A stretch of DNA of 64,000 bases from contig CAWDYC010000003.1 of the NCBI GenBank assembly GCA_963806535.1, positions 64,001 to 128,000 of the forward strand. Reading direction: 5' to 3'. This DNA is from Candidatus Bathyarchaeota archaeon. Lineage in GTDB: Archaea; Thermoproteota; Bathyarchaeia; Bathyarchaeales; Bathycorpusculaceae. Below are positions 23,049 to 42,698 of the stretch, one piece after another. The notes beneath the pieces were generated by a model. That model was not told where the DNA came from. It did not search any database and was given only the letters and a program-made list of their open reading frames with translations. A program made the translations under genes and the position numbers. The number at the start of each line of letters is the position of its first letter. Within the stretch, counting starts at the first letter, position 1.

Positions 23049-23228
23049 TCAAATAGGGGAAAGAACAAGCCTTGCAGAATTAACATCGACTTCAATGACT
23101 TTGCAGTTTTTAAATTCCTTAGCTTCACCCAAAATATTCTTAGCGACCAAGTTGGCACCTTCAGCTTTGGCGTAAATTACATCTTTGAATTGAATTTTGC
23201 CGTTTAAGATTACATTGAATTCACACAT
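23049..23228 (-). CDS. CooT-family small nickel-binding protein (59 aa, missed by ORF track)
   Basis: MCEFNVILNGKIQFKDVIYAKAEGANLVAKNILGEAKEFKNCKVIEVDVNSARLVLSPI*; MC start and LGE motif fit CooT. Confidence 0.75.
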   Translation of the reverse strand: MCEFNVILNGKIQFKDVIYAKAEGANLVAKNILGEAKEFKNCKVIEVDVNSARLVLSPI

Positions 23229-23410
23229 ATTTTTTCACAAGATAAGAAAAATGGAAATCGGGGTTATAAGCGCTTTTGTGCGCACAAACTAATTTATCTA
23301 TTCGATTCATTAGCAAGAGTTAGGTCTTATTTTTTCTAAAACTAAGTTTGATATCGGCTTTTGGATGACAAATATTAACATAAATTGTAAACATTCGAGG
23401 TTGACACCGT

Positions 23411-23426
23411 AAACTTTTTATTTGAA
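23411..23426 (+). promoter_or_regulatory. putative BRE/TATA promoter of the ilv-leu operon
   Basis: AAACTTTTTATTTGAA about 45-55 bp upstream of the leader ORF. Confidence 0.5.
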
Positions 23427-23468
23427 CAGTTATGTACTTTTAAGGACTGGTATTTAAGAGGAACTAAG

Positions 23469-23519
23469 ATGAGGGATCGTCACCTCCATAGCTGGGATCG
23501 TCGGGTACTTATTCTTTGA
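23469..23519 (+). CDS. putative ilv-leu operon leader peptide MRDRHLHSWDRRVLIL
   Basis: GAGGA SD-like site at 23458-23462; four consecutive Val-Leu-Ile-Leu codons immediately before TGA; 101 nt upstream of ilvB. Confidence 0.7.
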   Translation: MRDRHLHSWDRRVLIL

Positions 23520-23620
23520 TTCACCCAGGCACCCCTCTGAAAAATCGATTATTACAAATGCAAACCAAATTTTTCGAGACGAGAGTATAGAAATTAAATT
23601 CGATAGAAGGAGACCATAAA

Positions 23621-25333
23621 ATGACTAAAATGTCTGGTGCAAAAGTACTATTAGAATCCCTTGAACAACAAAATGTAGACGTTATATTCGGCATTCTAGG
23701 AGGAGCTATCTTGCCAGTATACGATGCCTTATGCGGTAACGAGAAAATTAGACATATATTAGCTCGACACGAACAAGGAGCAGCACATGCTGCTGAAGGA
23801 TATGCGAGAGCAAGCGGACGAGTGGGCGTCTGCATGGCAACTTCGGGGCCTGGTGCAACAAACCTCGTTACTGGGATAGCAAATGCCTACATGGATTCTT
23901 CGCCAATGATAGCTATTACTGGACAGGTTCCCTCAACAGGTGTTAATTCTTCATATATGATCGGTAGAGATGCTTTCCAGGAAGCAGACATTATCGGCAT
24001 CACCACCCCAATCACTAAACACAATTATCAGCCACGAACTATAGCCGAAATCCAACCAATGGTTAACGCCGCATTCTATATCGCATCCTCAGGCAGGCCA
24101 GGACCAGTCCTAATTGACATGCCAAAAAATGTGCAGTCGGACACCGCCGAAATAGAATTAGGAATTACACAAAAGATTGAAGCGCGAGGCTACAAACCCG
24201 CATTAGATCCAGATTTGTCTAAAATTAGCGAAGCAGCCGATTTACTGGCAGAGGCTTTAGAACCAATAATACTGGCTGGCGGCGGAGTAATTTCTTCTAA
24301 TGCATCAGACGAACTAATGCAAATGTCCGATTTGTTGATGGCGCCAGTTGCAACTACTTTCATGGGCAAAGGCGCCTTTCCCGAGGGGCACCCCTTGTCG
24401 GTTGGATGCATAGGAATGCATGGAAACCCAGCTGCAAATAGGCTGATTGGTGAAGCTGACGTTCTATTAGCAATCGGGACCAGATTTTCTGATCGTGCAA
24501 CAGCCAACTTGGACACTTTCGCGCCTAACGCCAAGAAAATACACATTGACATTGATGCCGCAGAAATCGGCAAGAATATTGAAGTTGATGTTCCCATCGT
24601 TGGAGACGCAAAAGTATCATTAAAGCTATTGCATGTTGCCGTGACAAAGAAGCTACCTAAGATGAAAGTTAGTGCATGGTCAAAGCGTGTGAAAGAAGTA
24701 AAAGAGCAGCTGAGTCCATTACTAAAAGACAGACCTAAAGACCTAGTGCCAAAGGCCCTACTGATAGAGCTAAGAAAACTGCTACCAGCAGACACCATTG
24801 TTACTACAGAAGTTGGTCAAAACCAGATGTGGTCAGCCCTATACTTCCAAGCATTAAAACCCAGAACCTTCATCAGTTCAGGTGGGCTAGGAACCATGGG
24901 ATTTGGCTTCCCAGCAGCTATAGGAGCAAAAGTTGCCTGCCCAGACAGACCTGTCGTAGATATAGCTGGCGACGGCAGCTTCATAATGACTGAACAAGAA
25001 CTTGCATGTTCTGTAGCTGAAAAGATTCCGGTAATAGTCATAGTGCTGAATAATTCAGTTTTAGGCATGGTTGCTCAGTGGCAAAGAACACTTTACAATC
25101 GCCGTTACATGGCAGTAAACCTAGGCAAAACACCAAATATGGTGAAGCTTGCAGAGGCTTATGGAGCACAAGGCTTCAGAGTAAATTCAATTGAAGAATT
25201 CCAAAAAGCGGTTAAGACAGCGCTAAACAGTAACGTTACAACAGTAATCGATGTGCCTATTGGCTCAGAACAGGACGTGGTTCCATTTGTGCCTCCAGGC
25301 TGCGGGTTACCACAACAAAGAGGTGACTACTAA
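23621..25333 (+). CDS. ilvB: acetolactate synthase large subunit
   Basis: RHEQGAAHAAEGYAR, TSGPGATN, SGGLGTMGFG and GDGS TPP motif. Confidence 0.97.
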   Translation: MTKMSGAKVLLESLEQQNVDVIFGILGGAILPVYDALCGNEKIRHILARHEQGAAHAAEGYARASGRVGVCMATSGPGATNLVTGIANAYMDSSPMIAITGQVPSTGVNSSYMIGRDAFQEADIIGITTPITKHNYQPRTIAEIQPMVNAAFYIASSGRPGPVLIDMPKNVQSDTAEIELGITQKIEARGYKPALDPDLSKISEAADLLAEALEPIILAGGGVISSNASDELMQMSDLLMAPVATTFMGKGAFPEGHPLSVGCIGMHGNPAANRLIGEADVLLAIGTRFSDRATANLDTFAPNAKKIHIDIDAAEIGKNIEVDVPIVGDAKVSLKLLHVAVTKKLPKMKVSAWSKRVKEVKEQLSPLLKDRPKDLVPKALLIELRKLLPADTIVTTEVGQNQMWSALYFQALKPRTFISSGGLGTMGFGFPAAIGAKVACPDRPVVDIAGDGSFIMTEQELACSVAEKIPVIVIVLNNSVLGMVAQWQRTLYNRRYMAVNLGKTPNMVKLAEAYGAQGFRVNSIEEFQKAVKTALNSNVTTVIDVPIGSEQDVVPFVPPGCGLPQQRGDY

Positions 25334-25845
25334 TGGAAGCCGAACAAACAAAAGTGATCTCTGTGCTTGTAGAAAACAAGCCAGGTGTCCTTCACGGCGT
25401 AGCCAACTTGTTCAGACGAAGAAACTTTAACATTGAAAGCATAACGGTTGGTCCAAGCGAAAATATCGATGTAGCACGCATGACAATCACCGTAAATGGT
25501 GACGAAAAGACACTTGAACAAGTCGTTAAGCAACTGGCAAAGCTCATCGATGTCCTAAAAGTAGAGGAGTTAGAACCCGGACACTTTGTGGTGAGAGAAC
25601 TAGCTTTGATAAAAGTTAACGCGCCTACACCTAAGGAACGTTCAGACATCATAAATTGCGTAGAAGTCTTTCGAGGACGAATCATAGATGTGGCAACTGA
25701 CAGCCTAACGGTTGAAATTACAGGAACCCCTGACAAATTAGATGCATTCCTCAATCTGATGAAAACGACCGGTGTCATTGAACTCGCAAGAACAGGAATA
25801 ACAGCATTGGCAAGAGGAGCAAAAACAGTAAGAATAGACGATTAA
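25333..25845 (+). CDS. ilvH: acetolactate synthase small subunit
   Basis: VENKPGVL ACT domain, QLAKLIDV and ELARTG. Confidence 0.95.
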   Translation: MEAEQTKVISVLVENKPGVLHGVANLFRRRNFNIESITVGPSENIDVARMTITVNGDEKTLEQVVKQLAKLIDVLKVEELEPGHFVVRELALIKVNAPTPKERSDIINCVEVFRGRIIDVATDSLTVEITGTPDKLDAFLNLMKTTGVIELARTGITALARGAKTVRIDD

Positions 25846-25949
25846 ATCGTTTCTTTGAACGGAAACGCTTAACTTTCGGTTTCTCAAAAATGAGAAACTG
25901 CCTACGATGGATTCCTCAAAATGATTATTGTAAAAAGAGAGAACAAACA

Positions 25950-27218
25950 ATGAACATTACAGAAAAAATCTTGGCTAAAGCTTCAGGAAAAGATGTTGTG
26001 CACCCAGGAGAAATTGTGGATGCAAAAGTAGACATGATAATGGTGCACGATTTGACTGGGCCTTTAGCTGTTGAAGCCTTCAAAAAAATAGGCGTACAAA
26101 AAGTTTGGGATAACCAAAAAGCAGTGGTGATACTGGATCATCAGGTTCCGGCCGAATCAGTTAAGGCGGCTGAACTGCATAAGACCATGCGTCAATTCGC
26201 CAAAGACCAGAAACTGCGCTTATATGATATTGGGAGAGGCGGAATCTGTCATCAAGTTATGCCTGAAAAAGGACATGTAGTTCCAGGCACAGTAATTGTA
26301 GGTGCTGATTCGCATACCTGCACTTACGGAGCCTTCGGTGCTTTCGCCACTGGCATAGGTTCAACGGAAGCAGCAGCGGTTTTTGCTACTGGAAAAATCT
26401 GGCTGAAGGTTCCCGAAGCAATAAAAATAATCGTGACTGGGCAATTTCCAGACTTTGTTACTCCTAAAGATTTGATCTTATCAATAATTGGTCGAATTAG
26501 CGTTGAAGGGGCAATAAATGAAAGCGCTGAATTCACTGGTCCAACAATCAAGAGCATGAGCATAGCGGGAAGAATGACTATTTGTAACATGGCTGTGGAA
26601 ATGGGCGCAAAAAATGGCATCATCGAACCGGATGAAATAACCCGTAACTTCTTAGAAGGAAGAGTCAAAACATTACCCAATTTTGAATCATTGAAAAGCG
26701 ATACTGGTGCACATTACGCTCAAACAGTTGAATTTGATGTTTCAAAGATGGAGCCGCAAATAGCTTGTCCATCATCAGTCGACAATGTGAAGCCCGTTTC
26801 CAAAATTGGCAATGTTCCAATTGAGCAAGCTTTTATCGGGTCATGCACTAACGGCAGAATCGAAGATCTGCGGTTAGCTTCTCAAGTCCTAAAGGGCAAA
26901 AAAGTAAAAGACGGTGTTAGAGCTCTGGTGATTCCCGCTTCTCAAGAAGTTTACAGACAAGCATTAAATGAAGGCTTAATCGAAATCTTCAATGATGCAG
27001 GTGCAATTGTTTGTGGTTCAGCATGCGGCCCATGTTTAGGTGGTCACATCGGATTATTGGCAGCAGGCGAAACATGCGTTAGCACTTCAAACAGGAACTT
27101 TATTGGAAGAATGGGCAGTACCCAAGCCAGCGTATACCTAGCGTCCCCAGCAACAGTAGCCGCCTCAGCAATCACAGGAAAAATCACAGACCCGAGAACA
27201 CTGGAGGCAAAAGCATGA
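25950..27218 (+). CDS. leuC: 3-isopropylmalate dehydratase/homoaconitase large subunit
   Basis: DSHT, GSCTNGR, CGPCLG and STSNRNF. Confidence 0.92.
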   Translation: MNITEKILAKASGKDVVHPGEIVDAKVDMIMVHDLTGPLAVEAFKKIGVQKVWDNQKAVVILDHQVPAESVKAAELHKTMRQFAKDQKLRLYDIGRGGICHQVMPEKGHVVPGTVIVGADSHTCTYGAFGAFATGIGSTEAAAVFATGKIWLKVPEAIKIIVTGQFPDFVTPKDLILSIIGRISVEGAINESAEFTGPTIKSMSIAGRMTICNMAVEMGAKNGIIEPDEITRNFLEGRVKTLPNFESLKSDTGAHYAQTVEFDVSKMEPQIACPSSVDNVKPVSKIGNVPIEQAFIGSCTNGRIEDLRLASQVLKGKKVKDGVRALVIPASQEVYRQALNEGLIEIFNDAGAIVCGSACGPCLGGHIGLLAAGETCVSTSNRNFIGRMGSTQASVYLASPATVAASAITGKITDPRTLEAKA

Positions 27219-27718
27219 ACATGAAAATCAAAGGACCAGCCATAAAATTCGGAAACAACATTGATACAGACGTAATTCTGCCAGGAAAATACTTAGTATT
27301 GGTTGATCCTCACGAGTTAGCAAAACATGCCCTAGAAAGCTTAGACACTACTTTTCCTGAAAAAGCGAAAAACGGAGTTATCTTGGTTGGCGGCAAAAAC
27401 TTTGGATGCGGTTCAAGCCGAGAACAAGCCCCCTTAGCCCTAAAGTATTCAGGCGTGAAATGCGTCTTAGCTGACTCATTCGCTAGAATTTTCTTCAGAA
27501 ACGCAATAAACATCGGCTTACCAGTAATCGAATGCAAGGGCATATCCAACGCGGTTGAAACAGGCGACGAATTAGCTGTAGACTTTGAAGCAGGCAAGAT
27601 AGAAAACATTTCAAAAGGAAAAAAGTTTCAAGTAGACAAACTGCCCCCATTCATCATAGAAATACTGATAGATGGCGGATTAATCGAAAATTTACGTAGG
27701 AGAATAAACAAAAAATGA
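27215..27718 (+). CDS. leuD: 3-isopropylmalate dehydratase small subunit
   Basis: IDTDVI, NFGCGSSRE and FARIFFRN. Confidence 0.92.
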   Translation: MNMKIKGPAIKFGNNIDTDVILPGKYLVLVDPHELAKHALESLDTTFPEKAKNGVILVGGKNFGCGSSREQAPLALKYSGVKCVLADSFARIFFRNAINIGLPVIECKGISNAVETGDELAVDFEAGKIENISKGKKFQVDKLPPFIIEILIDGGLIENLRRRINKK

Positions 27719-28752
27719 CAGAATACAAAATATCTTTAATCCCAGGAGACGGCATCGGACCAGAATTGACCGAAGCTACTCTAAAAGTTTTAGATTCAGC
27801 ACAGAAAAAATTCGGAATAAAACTGCAAATTATTGAAGCCGAAGCAGGCGATACCACTTTAGCTAAAAGAGGAGCCGCATTACCTGAAGATACCATTCAA
27901 AAAATCAAAGAATCCCACGCCTGCCTAAAAGGACCCGTAGGCGAAACCGCAGCCGACGTCATAGTTAAACTCAGAGTGATGTTCGATTTATACGCTAATC
28001 TGCGACCATTGAAAGCCTATCCAAACGTTCCTGTTGCCAGACCAGATATTGATATGATGTTTGTTCGGGAAAACACTGAGGACGTTTACAAAGGTATAGA
28101 ATTCACGATAGGCAATGATACAACCGTGTGCATGCGTGTTATCACGAGAGGAAATTGTGAACGCATAGCCAAAAAAGCTTTCGAGATAGCCCGTTTACGC
28201 AATGGAAAAAAGAAAGTAACCGCAATACACAAAGCCAACGTTATGCGTGTAACCGACGGGTTATTCGCAAGTGTCTGCCGAGAAACCGCAAAACGATACC
28301 CAGACATCGCTTTTAACGAGTTATACGTAGATGCAGCATCTATGCGTTTGATAAAGGAACCACAGGTTTTTGATGTTTTTTGCACTTGCAACATGTTTGG
28401 CGACATTCTATCTGACGAAGCAGCGCAACAAATCGGCGGACTAGGCATGGCTCCAGGCGCTAACATAGGCGACAACTTTGCGCTCTTCGAACCTATCCAT
28501 GGTTCAGCACCAAACAGAGCGGGAAAACATACAGCAAATCCAATTTCCATGATCTTGTCCGCAAAGATGATGCTGGAGTGGCTGGGAGAAAAATACAAAG
28601 ATAACAAATGCTTACAAGCAGGCGCAGCTATAGAAAATGGAGTGGTTTATGCTCTGCGTAATCGTCAATCTGTTCCGGACTGCGGCGGCAAGACCACGAC
28701 AGTGGGAATGGCAGAAGCCATTGCTGCAGCCCTAACTGTGAAAACTGGTTGA
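27715..28752 (+). CDS. leuB: 3-isopropylmalate dehydrogenase (isocitrate/isopropylmalate family)
   Basis: PGDGIGPE, RENTE, NMFGDILSD and EPIHGSAP. Confidence 0.9.
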   Translation: MTEYKISLIPGDGIGPELTEATLKVLDSAQKKFGIKLQIIEAEAGDTTLAKRGAALPEDTIQKIKESHACLKGPVGETAADVIVKLRVMFDLYANLRPLKAYPNVPVARPDIDMMFVRENTEDVYKGIEFTIGNDTTVCMRVITRGNCERIAKKAFEIARLRNGKKKVTAIHKANVMRVTDGLFASVCRETAKRYPDIAFNELYVDAASMRLIKEPQVFDVFCTCNMFGDILSDEAAQQIGGLGMAPGANIGDNFALFEPIHGSAPNRAGKHTANPISMILSAKMMLEWLGEKYKDNKCLQAGAAIENGVVYALRNRQSVPDCGGKTTTVGMAEAIAAALTVKTG

Positions 28753-28756
28753 AAAA

Positions 28757-30280
28757 ATGATTAATAAAACCTCAAAACGTATCCGAATTTTTGACACGAC
28801 CTTAAGAGATGGGGAACAAACCCCAGGAGTTTCTTTAACCGCCGACGATAAGATGGAGATTGCGCGCCAGCTGAGCAAGTTAGGCGTTGACACGATTGAG
28901 GCTGGTTTTCCCAGTTCTTCTGAGGGAGAAAAAAAAGTAGTTAAGGACATAGCTAAAGCAGGGTTAAACTCTGAGATCTGCGCTCTGTCAAGAGCTACAA
29001 AAGGCGACATTGACGCAGCAATCGAATGCGATGTTGATTTAATCCATGTTTTCGTCCCAACTTCTCCTGTACAAATGAAATATGCAGTAAACTTAACACC
29101 TGAACAAGTACTAACTGCAACAGTAGAATCCATTGAGCACGTGAAAAAACATGGGATAAAATGTGAATTTTCCCCTATGGATGCCACACGCTCAGAAATG
29201 CCCTTCCTAAAAAAAGTATGCCAAGCCGCAGAAAAAGCAGGCATGGACAGCCTAAACGTCCCAGACACGGTAGGCATAATGATTCCCAAAACAACCATCA
29301 AACTAATTGAGGAACTAAGAACCGTAGTTAAAGTACCCATAAGCGCCCATTGCCACGACGACTTCGGCTTAGCAGTTGCAAACTCGTTAGCTGCCGTTGA
29401 AGCAGGCGCTACTCAAGTACACGTTGCCGTTAACGGCTTAGGTGAACGAGCTGGAAACGCATCGCTGGAAGAAGTAGTTATGGCGTTGCATGAGATTTAC
29501 AAGTACAAAACAGGCGTCAACACAAGGTTACTTTACAGCACTTCAAGAATGGTTGCAACATTAACAGGTATTGGCGTTCAGGCAAACAAGGCAATTGTTG
29601 GCGAAAACGCTTTCGCTCATGAATCAGGAATCCATACTCGCGGAGTAACGGAGAAACCGTTGACTTTTGAACCGATAAAACCTGAGCTGGTTGGCCGAAC
29701 AAGAAAACTTGTGGCGGGAAAACTGGCAGGAACAAGCGGCATCAAAGCGGAACTGGAAGAGGTAGATATTCACCCCACAGAGGAGCAACTCAAAGAAATC
29801 GTGCAACGCGTCAAAGAACTAGGCGATAAGGGCAAGATGGTGACAGATGCTGATTTGCTGGCGTTAACTTCTGCAGTTATGGGCCAAGTTTATGGCGAAG
29901 AAAAAATCGTTGACTTATCCGACATAGCTGTTATGACAGGAATCAAAGTTATCCCAACTGCTTCCGTCAGATTAACTTTGGATGGAAAAGAATACATTGC
30001 AGCTGAAACAGGCGTCGGCCCAGTTGATGCAGTCTTAAAAGCCATACAGAAACTAACCAACAACTTAGAAAACATACGACTCAGCGAATATCGTTTGGAA
30101 GCCATCACAGGCGGCTCAAACGCAGTTGCTGAAGTCATCATAAAAGTAGCGGACGAAAAAGGCAACATTGTTTCCGCACGAGCAGCCAGAGAAGATATAG
30201 TTATGGCAAGCGTTGAAGCAATGATAAACGGTATAAACAAGCTTTTGATAAAGAATCGTAAGCAGGGAAACCAAAAGTGA
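28757..30280 (+). CDS. leuA: 2-isopropylmalate synthase (LeuA; CimA paralogue not excluded)
   Basis: DTTLRDGEQ, HCHDD, GERAGN and HESGIH, with a C-terminal regulatory domain (GVGPVDA). Confidence 0.8.
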   Translation: MINKTSKRIRIFDTTLRDGEQTPGVSLTADDKMEIARQLSKLGVDTIEAGFPSSSEGEKKVVKDIAKAGLNSEICALSRATKGDIDAAIECDVDLIHVFVPTSPVQMKYAVNLTPEQVLTATVESIEHVKKHGIKCEFSPMDATRSEMPFLKKVCQAAEKAGMDSLNVPDTVGIMIPKTTIKLIEELRTVVKVPISAHCHDDFGLAVANSLAAVEAGATQVHVAVNGLGERAGNASLEEVVMALHEIYKYKTGVNTRLLYSTSRMVATLTGIGVQANKAIVGENAFAHESGIHTRGVTEKPLTFEPIKPELVGRTRKLVAGKLAGTSGIKAELEEVDIHPTEEQLKEIVQRVKELGDKGKMVTDADLLALTSAVMGQVYGEEKIVDLSDIAVMTGIKVIPTASVRLTLDGKEYIAAETGVGPVDAVLKAIQKLTNNLENIRLSEYRLEAITGGSNAVAEVIIKVADEKGNIVSARAAREDIVMASVEAMINGINKLLIKNRKQGNQK

Positions 30281-31092
30281 AATCCGTAGCTTTCCAAGGC
30301 GAACCAGGCGCTTATAGCGAAGGAGCAGCTTTCCAATTTTTCGGGGCAAAAACCAAAGTTAAGCCCTGCAAAGACTTCAAGGATGTTTTTGACAGCGTTT
30401 GCATGCGAAAAACCCAGTTCGGCATTGTTCCTATTGAGAACAGCTTAGAAGGCAGCGTGCCTCAGAATTATGACCTTTTTCTACGTTATGATTTAAAAGT
30501 TTGCGCTGAAGTAATTTTTAAAATTGAACATTGCCTCATAGCAAACCCAGGCACATCTCTTGACGACATTGAAGTGGTCTATTCACATCCACAAGCTTTA
30601 GGGCAATGTCGAAGTTTCCTTGAGGAGTTTGGACGCGAACTCATACCCACCTATGATACAGCTGGCAGCGTTAAATTGATTAAGGAAAAAAACCTCAAAA
30701 ACGCAGCCGCAATTGCCAGCGAAAGAGCAGCAGACATTTATGACATGCACATCCTCGCCAAAGATATCGCGGACAACCTTGAAAACTACACCCGCTTCTT
30801 TATACTGTATACGGAAGACGCAGCACCTACAGATAAAGACAAAACGAGCATAATCTTCTCGGCCAAACATGAGCCAGGCACACTCTACCATGCACTAGGA
30901 GAATTTGCAAAACGAGATATCAACCTAACAAAAATCGAATCCAGACCCACAAAGAAAACGGCGTGGGAATACAATTTTTACCTAGACTTTGAGGGACACC
31001 GAATTGAAACAAAATGTGCAGAAGCATTGAAAGCATTAGAACAATACGCTATATTCACAAAAATACTTGGATCCTATAGGAAAGCAAGTTAA
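30277..31092 (+). CDS. pheA: prephenate dehydratase
   Basis: QGEPGAYSE, PIENS, SHPQALGQC, NYTRF and ESRP ACT domain; GTG start overlaps the leuA stop. Confidence 0.95.
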   Translation: MKSVAFQGEPGAYSEGAAFQFFGAKTKVKPCKDFKDVFDSVCMRKTQFGIVPIENSLEGSVPQNYDLFLRYDLKVCAEVIFKIEHCLIANPGTSLDDIEVVYSHPQALGQCRSFLEEFGRELIPTYDTAGSVKLIKEKNLKNAAAIASERAADIYDMHILAKDIADNLENYTRFFILYTEDAAPTDKDKTSIIFSAKHEPGTLYHALGEFAKRDINLTKIESRPTKKTAWEYNFYLDFEGHRIETKCAEALKALEQYAIFTKILGSYRKAS

Positions 31093-41309: not shown

Positions 41310-42557
41310 TTATTTGGCGCTCCTTAATGAGTTTTTTATTAACTTCAAAGCCTTTTCCCGTTCATTCCAATCTACAAACAGCAAAATGCTGGATGTGATG
41401 GTTAATATGCCTGAAATATTTATGCCGCTGATTCTTAGGTCTTCGCTGATTTTTCCAATAATGCCATGGGTTGCTTCCAAGCCGACACCACTTGTTTTTA
41501 TGAAGACCAAGTCTTTTTTGACTGCCATAGCAATTGTTTCGTTATTGCTCTTTGTTATGTCATGAATGTTGTTGAAGAACATATCTAAGTTTTTCTCTTG
41601 AGAAACATAAAGGATAATTGAATTTGTAGACATAGACATGCCAAGCAAGAGTGAATGTTGCTTAGTTTCTTCAACCATTTCCTGAACGATTTGCGGATTG
41701 GCTGAGATTCCGTTTCCTATTACTGTTATTTCAGCGACTGGAAAAGAATTAGCAATTTCTGCATCTAATTCTGTTGCTAATGCGCCTGTAATTATTGTAC
41801 CCTCTTCGGTAAGATTGCCGTGTGCATGGTTGATTACTCGGATGTTGATGTTTTTGGGTTTGTACTTCAAGGCTTTGCTATGGATAAATTTAGCGCCTGA
41901 ATCAGCGAGGCCCACTAAGGTGTTAACGTCAATTTCTTTGAGGCGTTCGGGGTTGGAGACGATTTTTGGGTCACCTGACATTATGCCGTCTGCATCCGTT
42001 ACTAACACGATTTCGTCAGCGCCCAATGCTTCAGCTAGAACAAACGCCGTTGTATCGCTTCCGCCTCTTCCAAGCGTGGTAATTTTGCCATCTTTAGTTT
42101 TACCAAGAAAGCCAGCAACCACAGGTATAACACTCCTCTGCATTACCGGCAATACACATTCACGAATGTTCTTTTCACAATCTTTCAAGATTGGATTCGC
42201 ATTTTGGAATGCTGAATCAGTTATTATTGGCCAGTTGCTATCGATTGGATCAAAATAGCAAGATTCTGCCCCATTAGTCTTTAAAGCTGTTGAGAATATC
42301 CGAATGCTGGTTCGTTCACCCATTGATAAGATATCATCTAAATCTTTTTTCTCCAATTTACCTTTTGAAGCGTTTTTAGCAGTGGTCATGAGAACATCGG
42401 TTGTTTTGCCCATCGCTGAAACAACAACGGCAACACGTGTGCCTTTTTTGGCTTCATTCATAACGGCATCTACCGCTTTTAAGAGTCTATCGTGATCGGC
42501 TAAGCTAGAACCACCAAATTTAACAATAATTGTTTTACAAATGCCAGTCCTTTTCAT
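41310..42557 (-). CDS. lysC: aspartate kinase (first gene of the aromatic operon)
   Basis: KFGGSS, VVSAMG, TLGRGGSD and DPKIV, with ACT domains. Confidence 0.92.
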   Translation of the reverse strand: MKRTGICKTIIVKFGGSSLADHDRLLKAVDAVMNEAKKGTRVAVVVSAMGKTTDVLMTTAKNASKGKLEKKDLDDILSMGERTSIRIFSTALKTNGAESCYFDPIDSNWPIITDSAFQNANPILKDCEKNIRECVLPVMQRSVIPVVAGFLGKTKDGKITTLGRGGSDTTAFVLAEALGADEIVLVTDADGIMSGDPKIVSNPERLKEIDVNTLVGLADSGAKFIHSKALKYKPKNINIRVINHAHGNLTEEGTIITGALATELDAEIANSFPVAEITVIGNGISANPQIVQEMVEETKQHSLLLGMSMSTNSIILYVSQEKNLDMFFNNIHDITKSNNETIAMAVKKDLVFIKTSGVGLEATHGIIGKISEDLRISGINISGILTITSSILLFVDWNEREKALKLIKNSLRSAK

Positions 42558-42576
42558 ATTGATACACCCATGCTTT

Positions 42577-42614
42577 GCCCAGAACTTTTCTTAAAGAACT
42601 TTTCAGTTCTGGGC
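42577..42614 (-). promoter_or_regulatory. alternative RNA hairpins directly after the leader stop codon (putative attenuator switch)
   Basis: Perfect 10-bp inverted repeat GCCCAGAACT (42577-86) / AGTTCTGGGC (42605-14), with internal direct repeat AGAACTTTTC (42581-90 and 42595-604). Confidence 0.7.
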
Positions 42615-42698
42615 TTAAGAAAAATAACGATAAAAGTAGTAGTCGAAGCTAAGTAATTGTGCTGCGTTGCTTTCTTTGTTTAGTATGAAATTGGACAT
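42615..42698 (-). CDS. putative aromatic operon leader peptide MSNFILNKESNAAQLLSFDYYFYRYFS
   Basis: 27-aa ORF between the promoter and lysC; 7 of the last 10 codons are Phe/Tyr; stop is 57 nt upstream of lysC. Confidence 0.8.
   Translation of the reverse strand: MSNFILNKESNAAQLLSFDYYFYRYFS

Follow-up and report, generated by a model that had tools for sequence, protein, structure and literature searches.

A conserved, probably translated leader with an open, start-less +1 frame ahead of ilvB in Bathyarchaeia: a possible sensor of branched-chain amino acids

The leader that precedes ilvB in this Bathyarchaeota genome (positions 23445-23620 of the window, by which we mean the whole 64,000-nucleotide stretch of DNA that was analyzed) is best explained, on comparison with related loci, as a translated regulatory leader and not as a folded attenuator. 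The leader appears to sense the supply of leucine, valine and isoleucine. The best reading of how it would do so, and one that we hold at about even confidence, is +1 frameshifting at hungry codons, which would carry ribosomes through the leader to ilvB. The literature that we searched yielded no paper on amino-acid control of archaeal biosynthetic operons by leader ORFs or by frameshifting, and no published description of ilvB control by a +1 slip of the kind suggested here.

Organization of the ilv-leu leader

The features of the ilvB leader and of its sister leaders are collected in Table 1. The usual distance from a TATA element to the start of transcription places the latter at about position 23445. 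Downstream of it lies a short ORF (uORF) with its own Shine-Dalgarno (SD) sequence, whose frame we refer to as frame 0 and whose stop is separated from the ilvB ATG (23621) by 101 nt. An earlier note on this DNA had described this ORF as the leader peptide of an ilvBH-leuCDBA operon, ending in a Val-Leu-Ile-Leu run, and had listed with it a TATA-like and an SD-like element, the 101-nt gap, a direct repeat, and an anti-SD-like segment. All of these elements are present at the positions given in that note, and Pfam agrees with the operon assignment, with pheA in addition.

Two further observations concern the surroundings of the leader. The last gene of the ilv-leu operon, pheA, codes for prephenate dehydratase (30277-31092), and the uORF ends with Phe or Tyr codons in several relatives (HFY, YFF, QLF). 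On the other side, a gene for a 59-aa CooT-like protein (a CO-dehydrogenase accessory protein) lies on the minus strand at 23049-23228, divergent from the ilv promoter, and the ilv promoter block is kept in other genomes although the upstream neighbor gene changes.

Table 1. Features of the ilvB leader and of related leaders (positions are those of the window unless a contig or loci are named)
Feature	Position	Strand	Basis or remark
BRE-like ACACCGTAAAC then TATA-like TTTTTATT (archaeal promoter block)	23404..23422	+	conserved, 34-sequence alignment
TATA-like TTTTTATT	23415-23422	+	sequence
SD sequence AGAGG of the short ORF, 7 nt 5' of AUG	23457..23461	+	invariant or AGGGG, 34/34 sequences
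Frame-0 entry ORF MRDRHLHSWDRRVLIL, 16 codons + UGA	23469..23519	+	ORF reading and comparison
Module 1: SD-like GAGG-GAUC, spacer, P-site codon CAC, Leu sensing codon CUC (23484-86; codon 6)	23471..23486	+	module rule
Direct repeat GGGATCGTC, two copies 21 bp apart	23473-81 and 23494-502	+	sequence
+1 frame without start codon, 48 sense codons (GIVTSIAGIVGYLFFDSPR...), UAA at 23617-19	23473..23619	+	ends one base 5' of ilvB AUG (UAA-A-AUG)
Anti-SD-like TCACCTCC	23480-87	+	sequence
Module 2 (second repeat copy): CUGG-GAUC, spacer, P-site codon CGG, Val sensing codon GUA (23505-07; codon 13)	23492..23507	+	
Tail CUU AUU CUU UGA (Leu, Ile, Leu, stop), lineage-specific	23508..23519	+	variable across genus
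U5 tract, possible archaeal termination/pause signal	23570..23574	+	T-runs only mildly enriched
Conserved box GACGAGAGUAUA, its GACGA able to pair with module 1 UCGUC (23477-81)	23578..23589	+	alignment
ilvB SD sequence AAGGAGAC, +1-frame stop UAA, ilvB AUG (23621)	23607..23623	+	sequence
Regulated operon ilvB, ilvH, leuC, leuD, leuB, leuA, pheA	23621..31092	+	Pfam
Start-less cimA/leuA-like first gene of BCAA operon	loci L166, L172, L173, L177, L179, L259, L260		another family of the order
his-operon sister leader	G000:C3:158415-158580, outside the window		loci L129-L158, L196, L213, L215, L217-L222

Conservation of the short ORF

The genus- and family-level comparison was made on 40 ilvB leaders, 34 from same-genus loci and six from further close relatives labelled Bathyarchaeia. 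Among the same-genus genomes, ilvB was found in 33 of 36, and the three genomes without it are 56%, 65%, and 92% complete. The uORF, its SD sequence and a BRE/TATA block ~50 nt upstream precede ilvB at all 34 same-genus loci, and the six further relatives likewise carry all three. Although the ilvB proteins are only 78-93% identical (first 30 loci), hardly any variation is seen over the first 40 nt of the ORF. The 9-mer RUGAGGGAU is universal. The frame-0 stop falls at codon 17 in 35/40 leaders, with TGA, TAA, and TAG interchanging at that position.

Outside the family, the leader is recognizable in a shorter form. In other families of the order, a related uORF beginning with MRD lies ahead of ilvB at 9 of 11 loci, each time with its own promoter and SD sequence (e.g., MRDRFL, MRDRFLNRHR, and MRDSRVRRNRFIHS, each followed by a stop). 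At the remaining two loci, ilvB adjoins a cimA/leuA-like gene and the leader sits on that gene; overall, the shorter MRD form was found in these families ahead of ilvB, leuC or cimA/leuA. Judged from these alignments, the short ORF before ilvB is conserved to a degree beyond chance.

The earlier note had proposed a search of Bathyarchaeia for short ORFs upstream of ilvB that end in runs of Val, Leu and Ile codons. The uORF itself was found in 40/40 leaders, but no more than 10 of its 32 distinct sequences end in V-L-I-L. The final three codons differ widely across the genus (LIL, LVL, FIL, QIL, QIS, QLL, QLF, YFF, HFY, LFC, LFL, PRN), and the run cannot be upheld as a conserved sensor. The valine at codon 13 is present in 31/32 distinct sequences, and the leucine at codon 6 is likewise conserved. 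The broader proposal, in which the ilv-leu operon has a translated leader for the sensing of branched-chain amino acids (BCAA), is well supported by the comparison, through the ORF, its SD sequence, its promoter and the fixed BCAA codons, and through parallel leaders with His codons at the same module position (his operon) and with Phe/Tyr codons (aromatic operon).

An open +1 frame without a start codon

The first reading of the sequence missed the +1 frame of the leader. This frame begins at the GGG directly after an A-UGA that overlaps the AUG of the uORF, is open from that point in every lineage, and in the focal leader has no canonical start. The residues of frame 0 are MRDRH..., those of the +1 frame include ...SIAGIVGYLFFDSPR, and the direct repeat is translated in the +1 frame as Gly-Ile-Val twice. 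In 59/59 ilvB leaders from about eight families (the 40 leaders described above, a further 14, and five new ones), the +1 frame runs without a stop for 40-65 codons; for shuffled leaders, the mean probability of an open +1 frame was 0.086. Stops were also counted in the region between the frame-0 stop and the +1 stop of 57 distinct leaders, where the +1 frame held none, frame 0 held 175 (121 + 54) and the +2 frame 130 (73 + 57). For that count, a minimum length of 35 codons was set for the +1 frame, and the unfiltered lists contained none below 40. In 39/40 genus and family leaders, the +1 stop lies 1-2 nt before the in-frame ilvB start or overlaps it, and in the exception (L059) it lies 33 nt upstream of that start.

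Variation within the +1 frame differs between its core and the remainder. Beyond the core, diversity is flat over the three codon positions (0.478, 0.434, 0.442), and protein-level selection on this part of the +1 peptide was rejected on that basis; selection seems to act on translation itself and not on the peptide. Within the invariant core, the third positions of the +1 frame carry most of the variation (0.053, 0.091, 0.169), a pattern that could reflect reading of the +1 frame from its very beginning. We also considered, and rejected, an upstream start or read-through of the UGA as a source of ribosomes for the +1 frame, as the upstream AUG found in some families lacks a consistent frame.

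A crude scan of the focal genome alone returned 43 configurations in which a short SD-led ORF is combined with an open shifted frame that ends at a gene start. With so many look-alikes in one genome, only comparative conservation carries weight, and the related genomes in which it is seen are non-independent samples. Taken at the level of the whole comparison, an open, start-less +1 frame across the leader points to frameshifting and away from a terminator/antiterminator.

Modules with cognate codons

The conserved units of the leaders are modules of the form NGG-(G/A)A(U/G)-N6-X, a family to which the direct repeat belongs, each comprising an SD-like GAGG or UGGG with GAU, 6 nt, and one cognate codon X. 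In BCAA leaders, X is a Leu, Val or Ile codon in 105/107 modules (CUC, CUU, AUC, AUU, GUA, GUU), and in leaders before hisG it is a His codon (CAU or CAC) in 30/31. The few off-pattern cases are apparently spurious ORFs from other parts of the loci. At module 2 of the uORF, GUA occupies the sensing position in 31/32 distinct uORFs, and in the focal genus the SD-like core of this module is weak (UGGG or CGGG).

The 3' end of the 16S rRNA, as taken from the genome, reads GGAUCACCUCCU, and GAGG-GAUC can pair with this tail if one A bulges. Genome-wide, the spacing from GAGG to ATG peaks at 7-10 nt, and spacings of 6 nt or less are rare. When X is placed in the A site, the GAGG of the module sits 6 nt from the P site, versus that optimum of 7-10 nt. 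The P-site codons are not uniform: CGG-G, UGG-G, and UUU-A can re-pair at two of three positions after a +1 shift, whereas CAC-C and UUC-C cannot.

The distances between modules also differ by operon. BCAA modules follow one another at 18, 21 or 33 nt and therefore share one frame, and the long frame is +1. The his modules are 19 nt apart, which puts the second CAU in frame +1. This spacing arithmetic fits a putative requirement of one slip for the BCAA leaders or of two successive +1 slips for the his leaders.

Proteins might use the repeats instead of ribosomes. On that account, the two GGGATCGTC copies with their 21-bp spacing would serve as a DNA operator bound by a transcription factor, or would be recognized in the RNA by a dimeric protein, and the ORFs would be incidental. 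The near invariance of the core at the nucleotide level, the repeat spacing of about two helical turns, and the 12-nt direct repeat carried by the his leader all agree with such a site. We nevertheless consider it very improbable: the inferred start of transcription lies ~25-60 nt upstream of the site, the two-copy pattern occurs nowhere else in the 2.9-Mb genome and so there is no regulon, and the SD sequence with its AUG/GUG, the cognate codons at fixed offsets and the open +1 frame would all be left unexplained.

Leaders of leuC, cimA/leuA, his and aromatic operons

In another family of the order, the leuC leaders (n = 5) have a +1 frame of 47-54 codons, which overlaps leuC through AUGA in 4/5 cases. 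In the cimA/leuA leaders of that same family, the enzyme itself is encoded in the +1 frame at 7/7 loci. The enzyme frame spans 501-519 codons with HMGL-like and LeuA_dimer domains (E about 1e-81), and no ATG, GTG or TTG was found in it before the DTTLRDGEQ motif at any of the seven loci. The sole SD sequence with an AUG or GUG at these loci opens an ORF of 18 (or 6) codons in the -1 frame relative to the enzyme. From this arrangement, the start-less CimA/LeuA seems makeable only via a +1 shift. Gene callers would truncate these genes past DTTLRDGEQ.

The his leader has frame-0 residues (M)MRDCVH..., with His at codon 6. In frame +1, a second CAU comes after a further 19 nt, and a stop follows it by 0-4 codons. 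Its long frame, which is 48-69 codons in length and reaches hisG, is +2 in 29/30 same-genus loci and in 9/9 further loci, five of which belong to other families. The +2 frame of the focal genus has a start of its own (AGGUG-N7-GUG), and this blurs the two-slip model there. As a separate observation, the hisG frame of the focal genome (G000:C3:158581-160860, L128) runs for 759-761 codons into hisD-like sequence, where relatives have ~335 codons; the middle of this long frame looks out of frame and may represent a fusion, a frameshift or an assembly error.

These leaders bear on another account of the +1 frame, namely that it is a real leader cistron and frame 0 a by-product. Ribosomes would enter the +1 frame from the beginning, through non-canonical initiation or through a slip on AUG-AGG-G in which tRNA-Arg CCU re-pairs on GGG. 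Sensing would then occur through the frame's own Ile and Val codons (GIVTSIAGIVGY), or the frame would merely deliver ribosomes to ilvB by coupling. Several properties of the core agree with this account, including the universal RUGAGGGAU, the doubled Gly-Ile-Val, and a frame that is open right after the A-UGA in every lineage. The concentration of core variation on +1 third positions, in particular, means that early entry into the +1 frame stays a live rival. We judge it unlikely, however, as the operon-specific codon (His versus Leu, Val or Ile) lies in frame 0. In addition, the frame-0 His of the his leaders is kept through a synonymous change from CAU to CAC while the overlapping +1 residue changes, the long his frame of the focal genus is without His, and one leader (L039) swaps the +1 Ile for Arg where frame 0 changes only from Asp to Glu.

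The earlier note had also drawn a parallel with the leader of the aromatic operon (42557-42697 of the window, minus strand; loci L229-L258), and this parallel was borne out, as a Phe/Tyr-rich leader is conserved in 29/29 loci with a peptide that ends ...SFDYYFY.YF(P/S) before the stop. A strong hairpin, GCCCAGAACU...AGUUCUGGGC, follows the peptide. The +1 frame of this leader is open to within 9 nt or less of the amino-acid-kinase gene start in 25/29 loci, with an AUGA overlap in the copy in the window.

Predicted RNA structure of the ilvB leader

Rfam gave no match at the gathering score in the window, and at E values of up to 10 the sole match in 23380-23660 was a chance miRNA (E = 3.6). RNAalifold returned a weak consensus fold (-13 kcal/mol) with no compensatory pairs, in which only an SD:CCUCU pairing and a small GAGG..CCUC hairpin were seen, and the focal leader folds no better than its shuffles (z = +1.3). 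Two local pairings stood out in the alignment. CUGGG:CCCAG is kept in 94% of cells with one covarying pair, and UCGUC:GACGA is kept in 90% of cells with one compensatory pair (4 cells; 7 cells on 40 sequences). The compensatory changes in UCGUC:GACGA probably represent one or two events, which makes them weak support for that pairing, and that in CUGGG:CCCAG probably a single one.

T-runs of at least 5 occur in 44% of the genus and family leaders, and the mean longest T-run is 4.2 versus 3.1 in shuffles. This enrichment is only mild, and a conserved U-tract terminator was rejected. An RNA switch of the terminator/antiterminator type finds little support in the weak consensus fold, the focal z-score, and U-runs in fewer than half of the leaders; no conserved terminator/antiterminator fold was found. 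The earlier note had described the anti-SD-like TCACCTCC as able to pair with the ilvB GGAG site. No masking by this or any other leader segment is predicted, the unpaired probability of the ilvB SD sequence being 0.39 versus 0.37 in shuffled controls (39 leaders). A T-box-like or tRNA-pairing role was likewise set aside: comparison by eye of the repeats with the 39 tRNAs revealed no obvious complementarity, and the idea was dropped because UGGG is changed to CGGG in several leaders.

These results weigh on the classical interpretation, in which a ribosome stalled on V-L-I-L selects between alternative pairings that control transcription termination upstream of ilvB. Such an attenuator could draw on the BCAA codons that adjoin the stop of the leader ORF, the retention and single covarying pair of CUGGG/CCCAG (94%) along with the retention of UCGUC/GACGA (90%), the mild T-run enrichment, and the strong hairpin at the neighboring aromatic leader. 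We regard it as quite improbable for the ilvB leader. This is because V-L-I-L is unconserved, the consensus fold is without compensatory pairs and the focal leader folds no better than shuffles, and the C-to-U changes that preserve G-U pairs also leave the +1 residues identical or conservatively replaced. Nor does an attenuator account for a start-less +1 frame that is open in 59/59 leaders.

A proposed frameshift mechanism

We propose that ribosomes would load at AGAGG-N7-AUG and read the 16-codon frame 0. Shortage of the cognate charged tRNA would leave the ribosome waiting with the sensing codon in its A site, and the SD-like tether 6 nt from the P site (7-10 nt at normal starts) would then favor a +1 slip in a prfB-like manner. 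The shifted ribosome would read the remainder of the leader and terminate on the ilvB start codon. ilvB expression would rise as a result, through termination-reinitiation coupling, through protection of the nascent RNA against termination that depends on a factor or a U-tract, or through both. When Leu, Val, and Ile are ample, ribosomes would halt at 23517-19, 101 nt before ilvB. For the alternative output, the work on U-tract- and FttA/aCPSF1-dependent termination in PMC12548453, PMC8716108, and PMC11616081 is relevant, as far as the available parts of those papers go.

Besides the core variation, the GUG start of the focal-genus his frame and the 43 look-alikes noted above, further observations count against this frameshift reading. 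The slipperiness of the P-site codons is not uniform, CAC-C and UUC-C being the cases in point, and the SD-like core of module 2 is weak. At the output step, ilvB has an SD sequence of its own, for which no masking is predicted.

A wider version of the proposal can be made for Bathyarchaeia, to which we give a little less than even weight. It holds that these archaea may possess a modular ribosome sensor, composed of a tether and a cognate A-site codon, in which one slip would gate BCAA operons and two slips, set by the 19-nt spacing, would gate the his operon, and that the start-less CimA/LeuA would be made only via the slip.

Comparison with known systems

Among bacterial systems, the leader-peptide attenuators of the enterobacterial BCAA operons (ivbL, ilvL, and leuL; for the general principle, see the available part of PMC1183508) are the closest in layout. 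As in those leaders, an SD-led short ORF with codons for the end products lies at the 5' end of the operon mRNA, and the speed of its translation would report on charged tRNA. The leader described here differs in its archaeal host, in having, in place of long runs, cognate codons that occur singly and at a set distance from SD-like elements, in that no conserved terminator/antiterminator hairpins were found, and in the start-less +1 frame that reaches the structural gene. Known RNA families (T-box, riboswitches, and Rfam leaders) offer no covariance-model match.

The gene for release factor 2, prfB, is autoregulated by a programmed +1 frameshift. The tail of the focal uORF contains CUU-UGA, with the last codon and stop of the prfB shift site. 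The ilvB leader resembles prfB in having an SD-like element close 5' of the P site, a slow A-site codon, and a productive +1 frame without its own start, and the cimA/leuA genes of the sister family are split exactly as prfB is. Unlike in prfB, where it is a stop, the slow codon specifies the regulated amino acid; in addition, no fixed slippery CUU occupies the P site, and the shifted frame of the focal leader ends at the enzyme start and does not encode the enzyme. Release-factor autoregulation and slow A-site codons are both treated in the portion of PMC5009743 available to us.

That portion also deals with hungry codons and with ermC, in whose leader ORF frameshifting is induced by a ketolide. 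As described there, a shift in the leader ORF leads to translation of the intergenic spacer and the downstream gene is switched on, much as we propose for ilvB. The trigger in ermC is an antibiotic and its output, per the same portion, unfolds a structure that masks the ribosome binding site, whereas for ilvB the trigger would be amino-acid shortage and no such masking is predicted. Frameshifting has also been described in the pheL leader of E. coli (PMC3082878, available part), and is treated as incidental in the portion of PMC5009743 cited above. Both cases concern a frameshift in the leader ORF of an amino-acid biosynthetic operon, and pheL was, by these partial accounts, once a candidate for productive use; the ilvB leader differs from pheL, so far as those accounts extend, in that, across all lineages examined, its shifted frame has stayed open as far as the gene start. 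Finally, the leader resembles translationally coupled cistrons, as the upstream stop overlaps or adjoins the start in 39/40 genus and family leaders and in 4/5 leuC leaders.

Implications

The frameshift account of the ilvB leader bears on how archaea, without the bacterial toolkit, tune their amino-acid synthesis. If it is true, then frameshifting at hungry codons would be a selected regulatory device and not a translational error, and the archaeal anti-SD would act on elongating ribosomes. It would also account for biosynthetic genes of uncultured archaea that lack a start and are cut short or misannotated by gene callers. The spacing of the modules, the cognate codon, and the open shifted frame are sequence rules that make the idea directly testable. 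If the modular-sensor reading is true as well, these archaea would have a translational counterpart of attenuation, one in which no RNA switch is needed.
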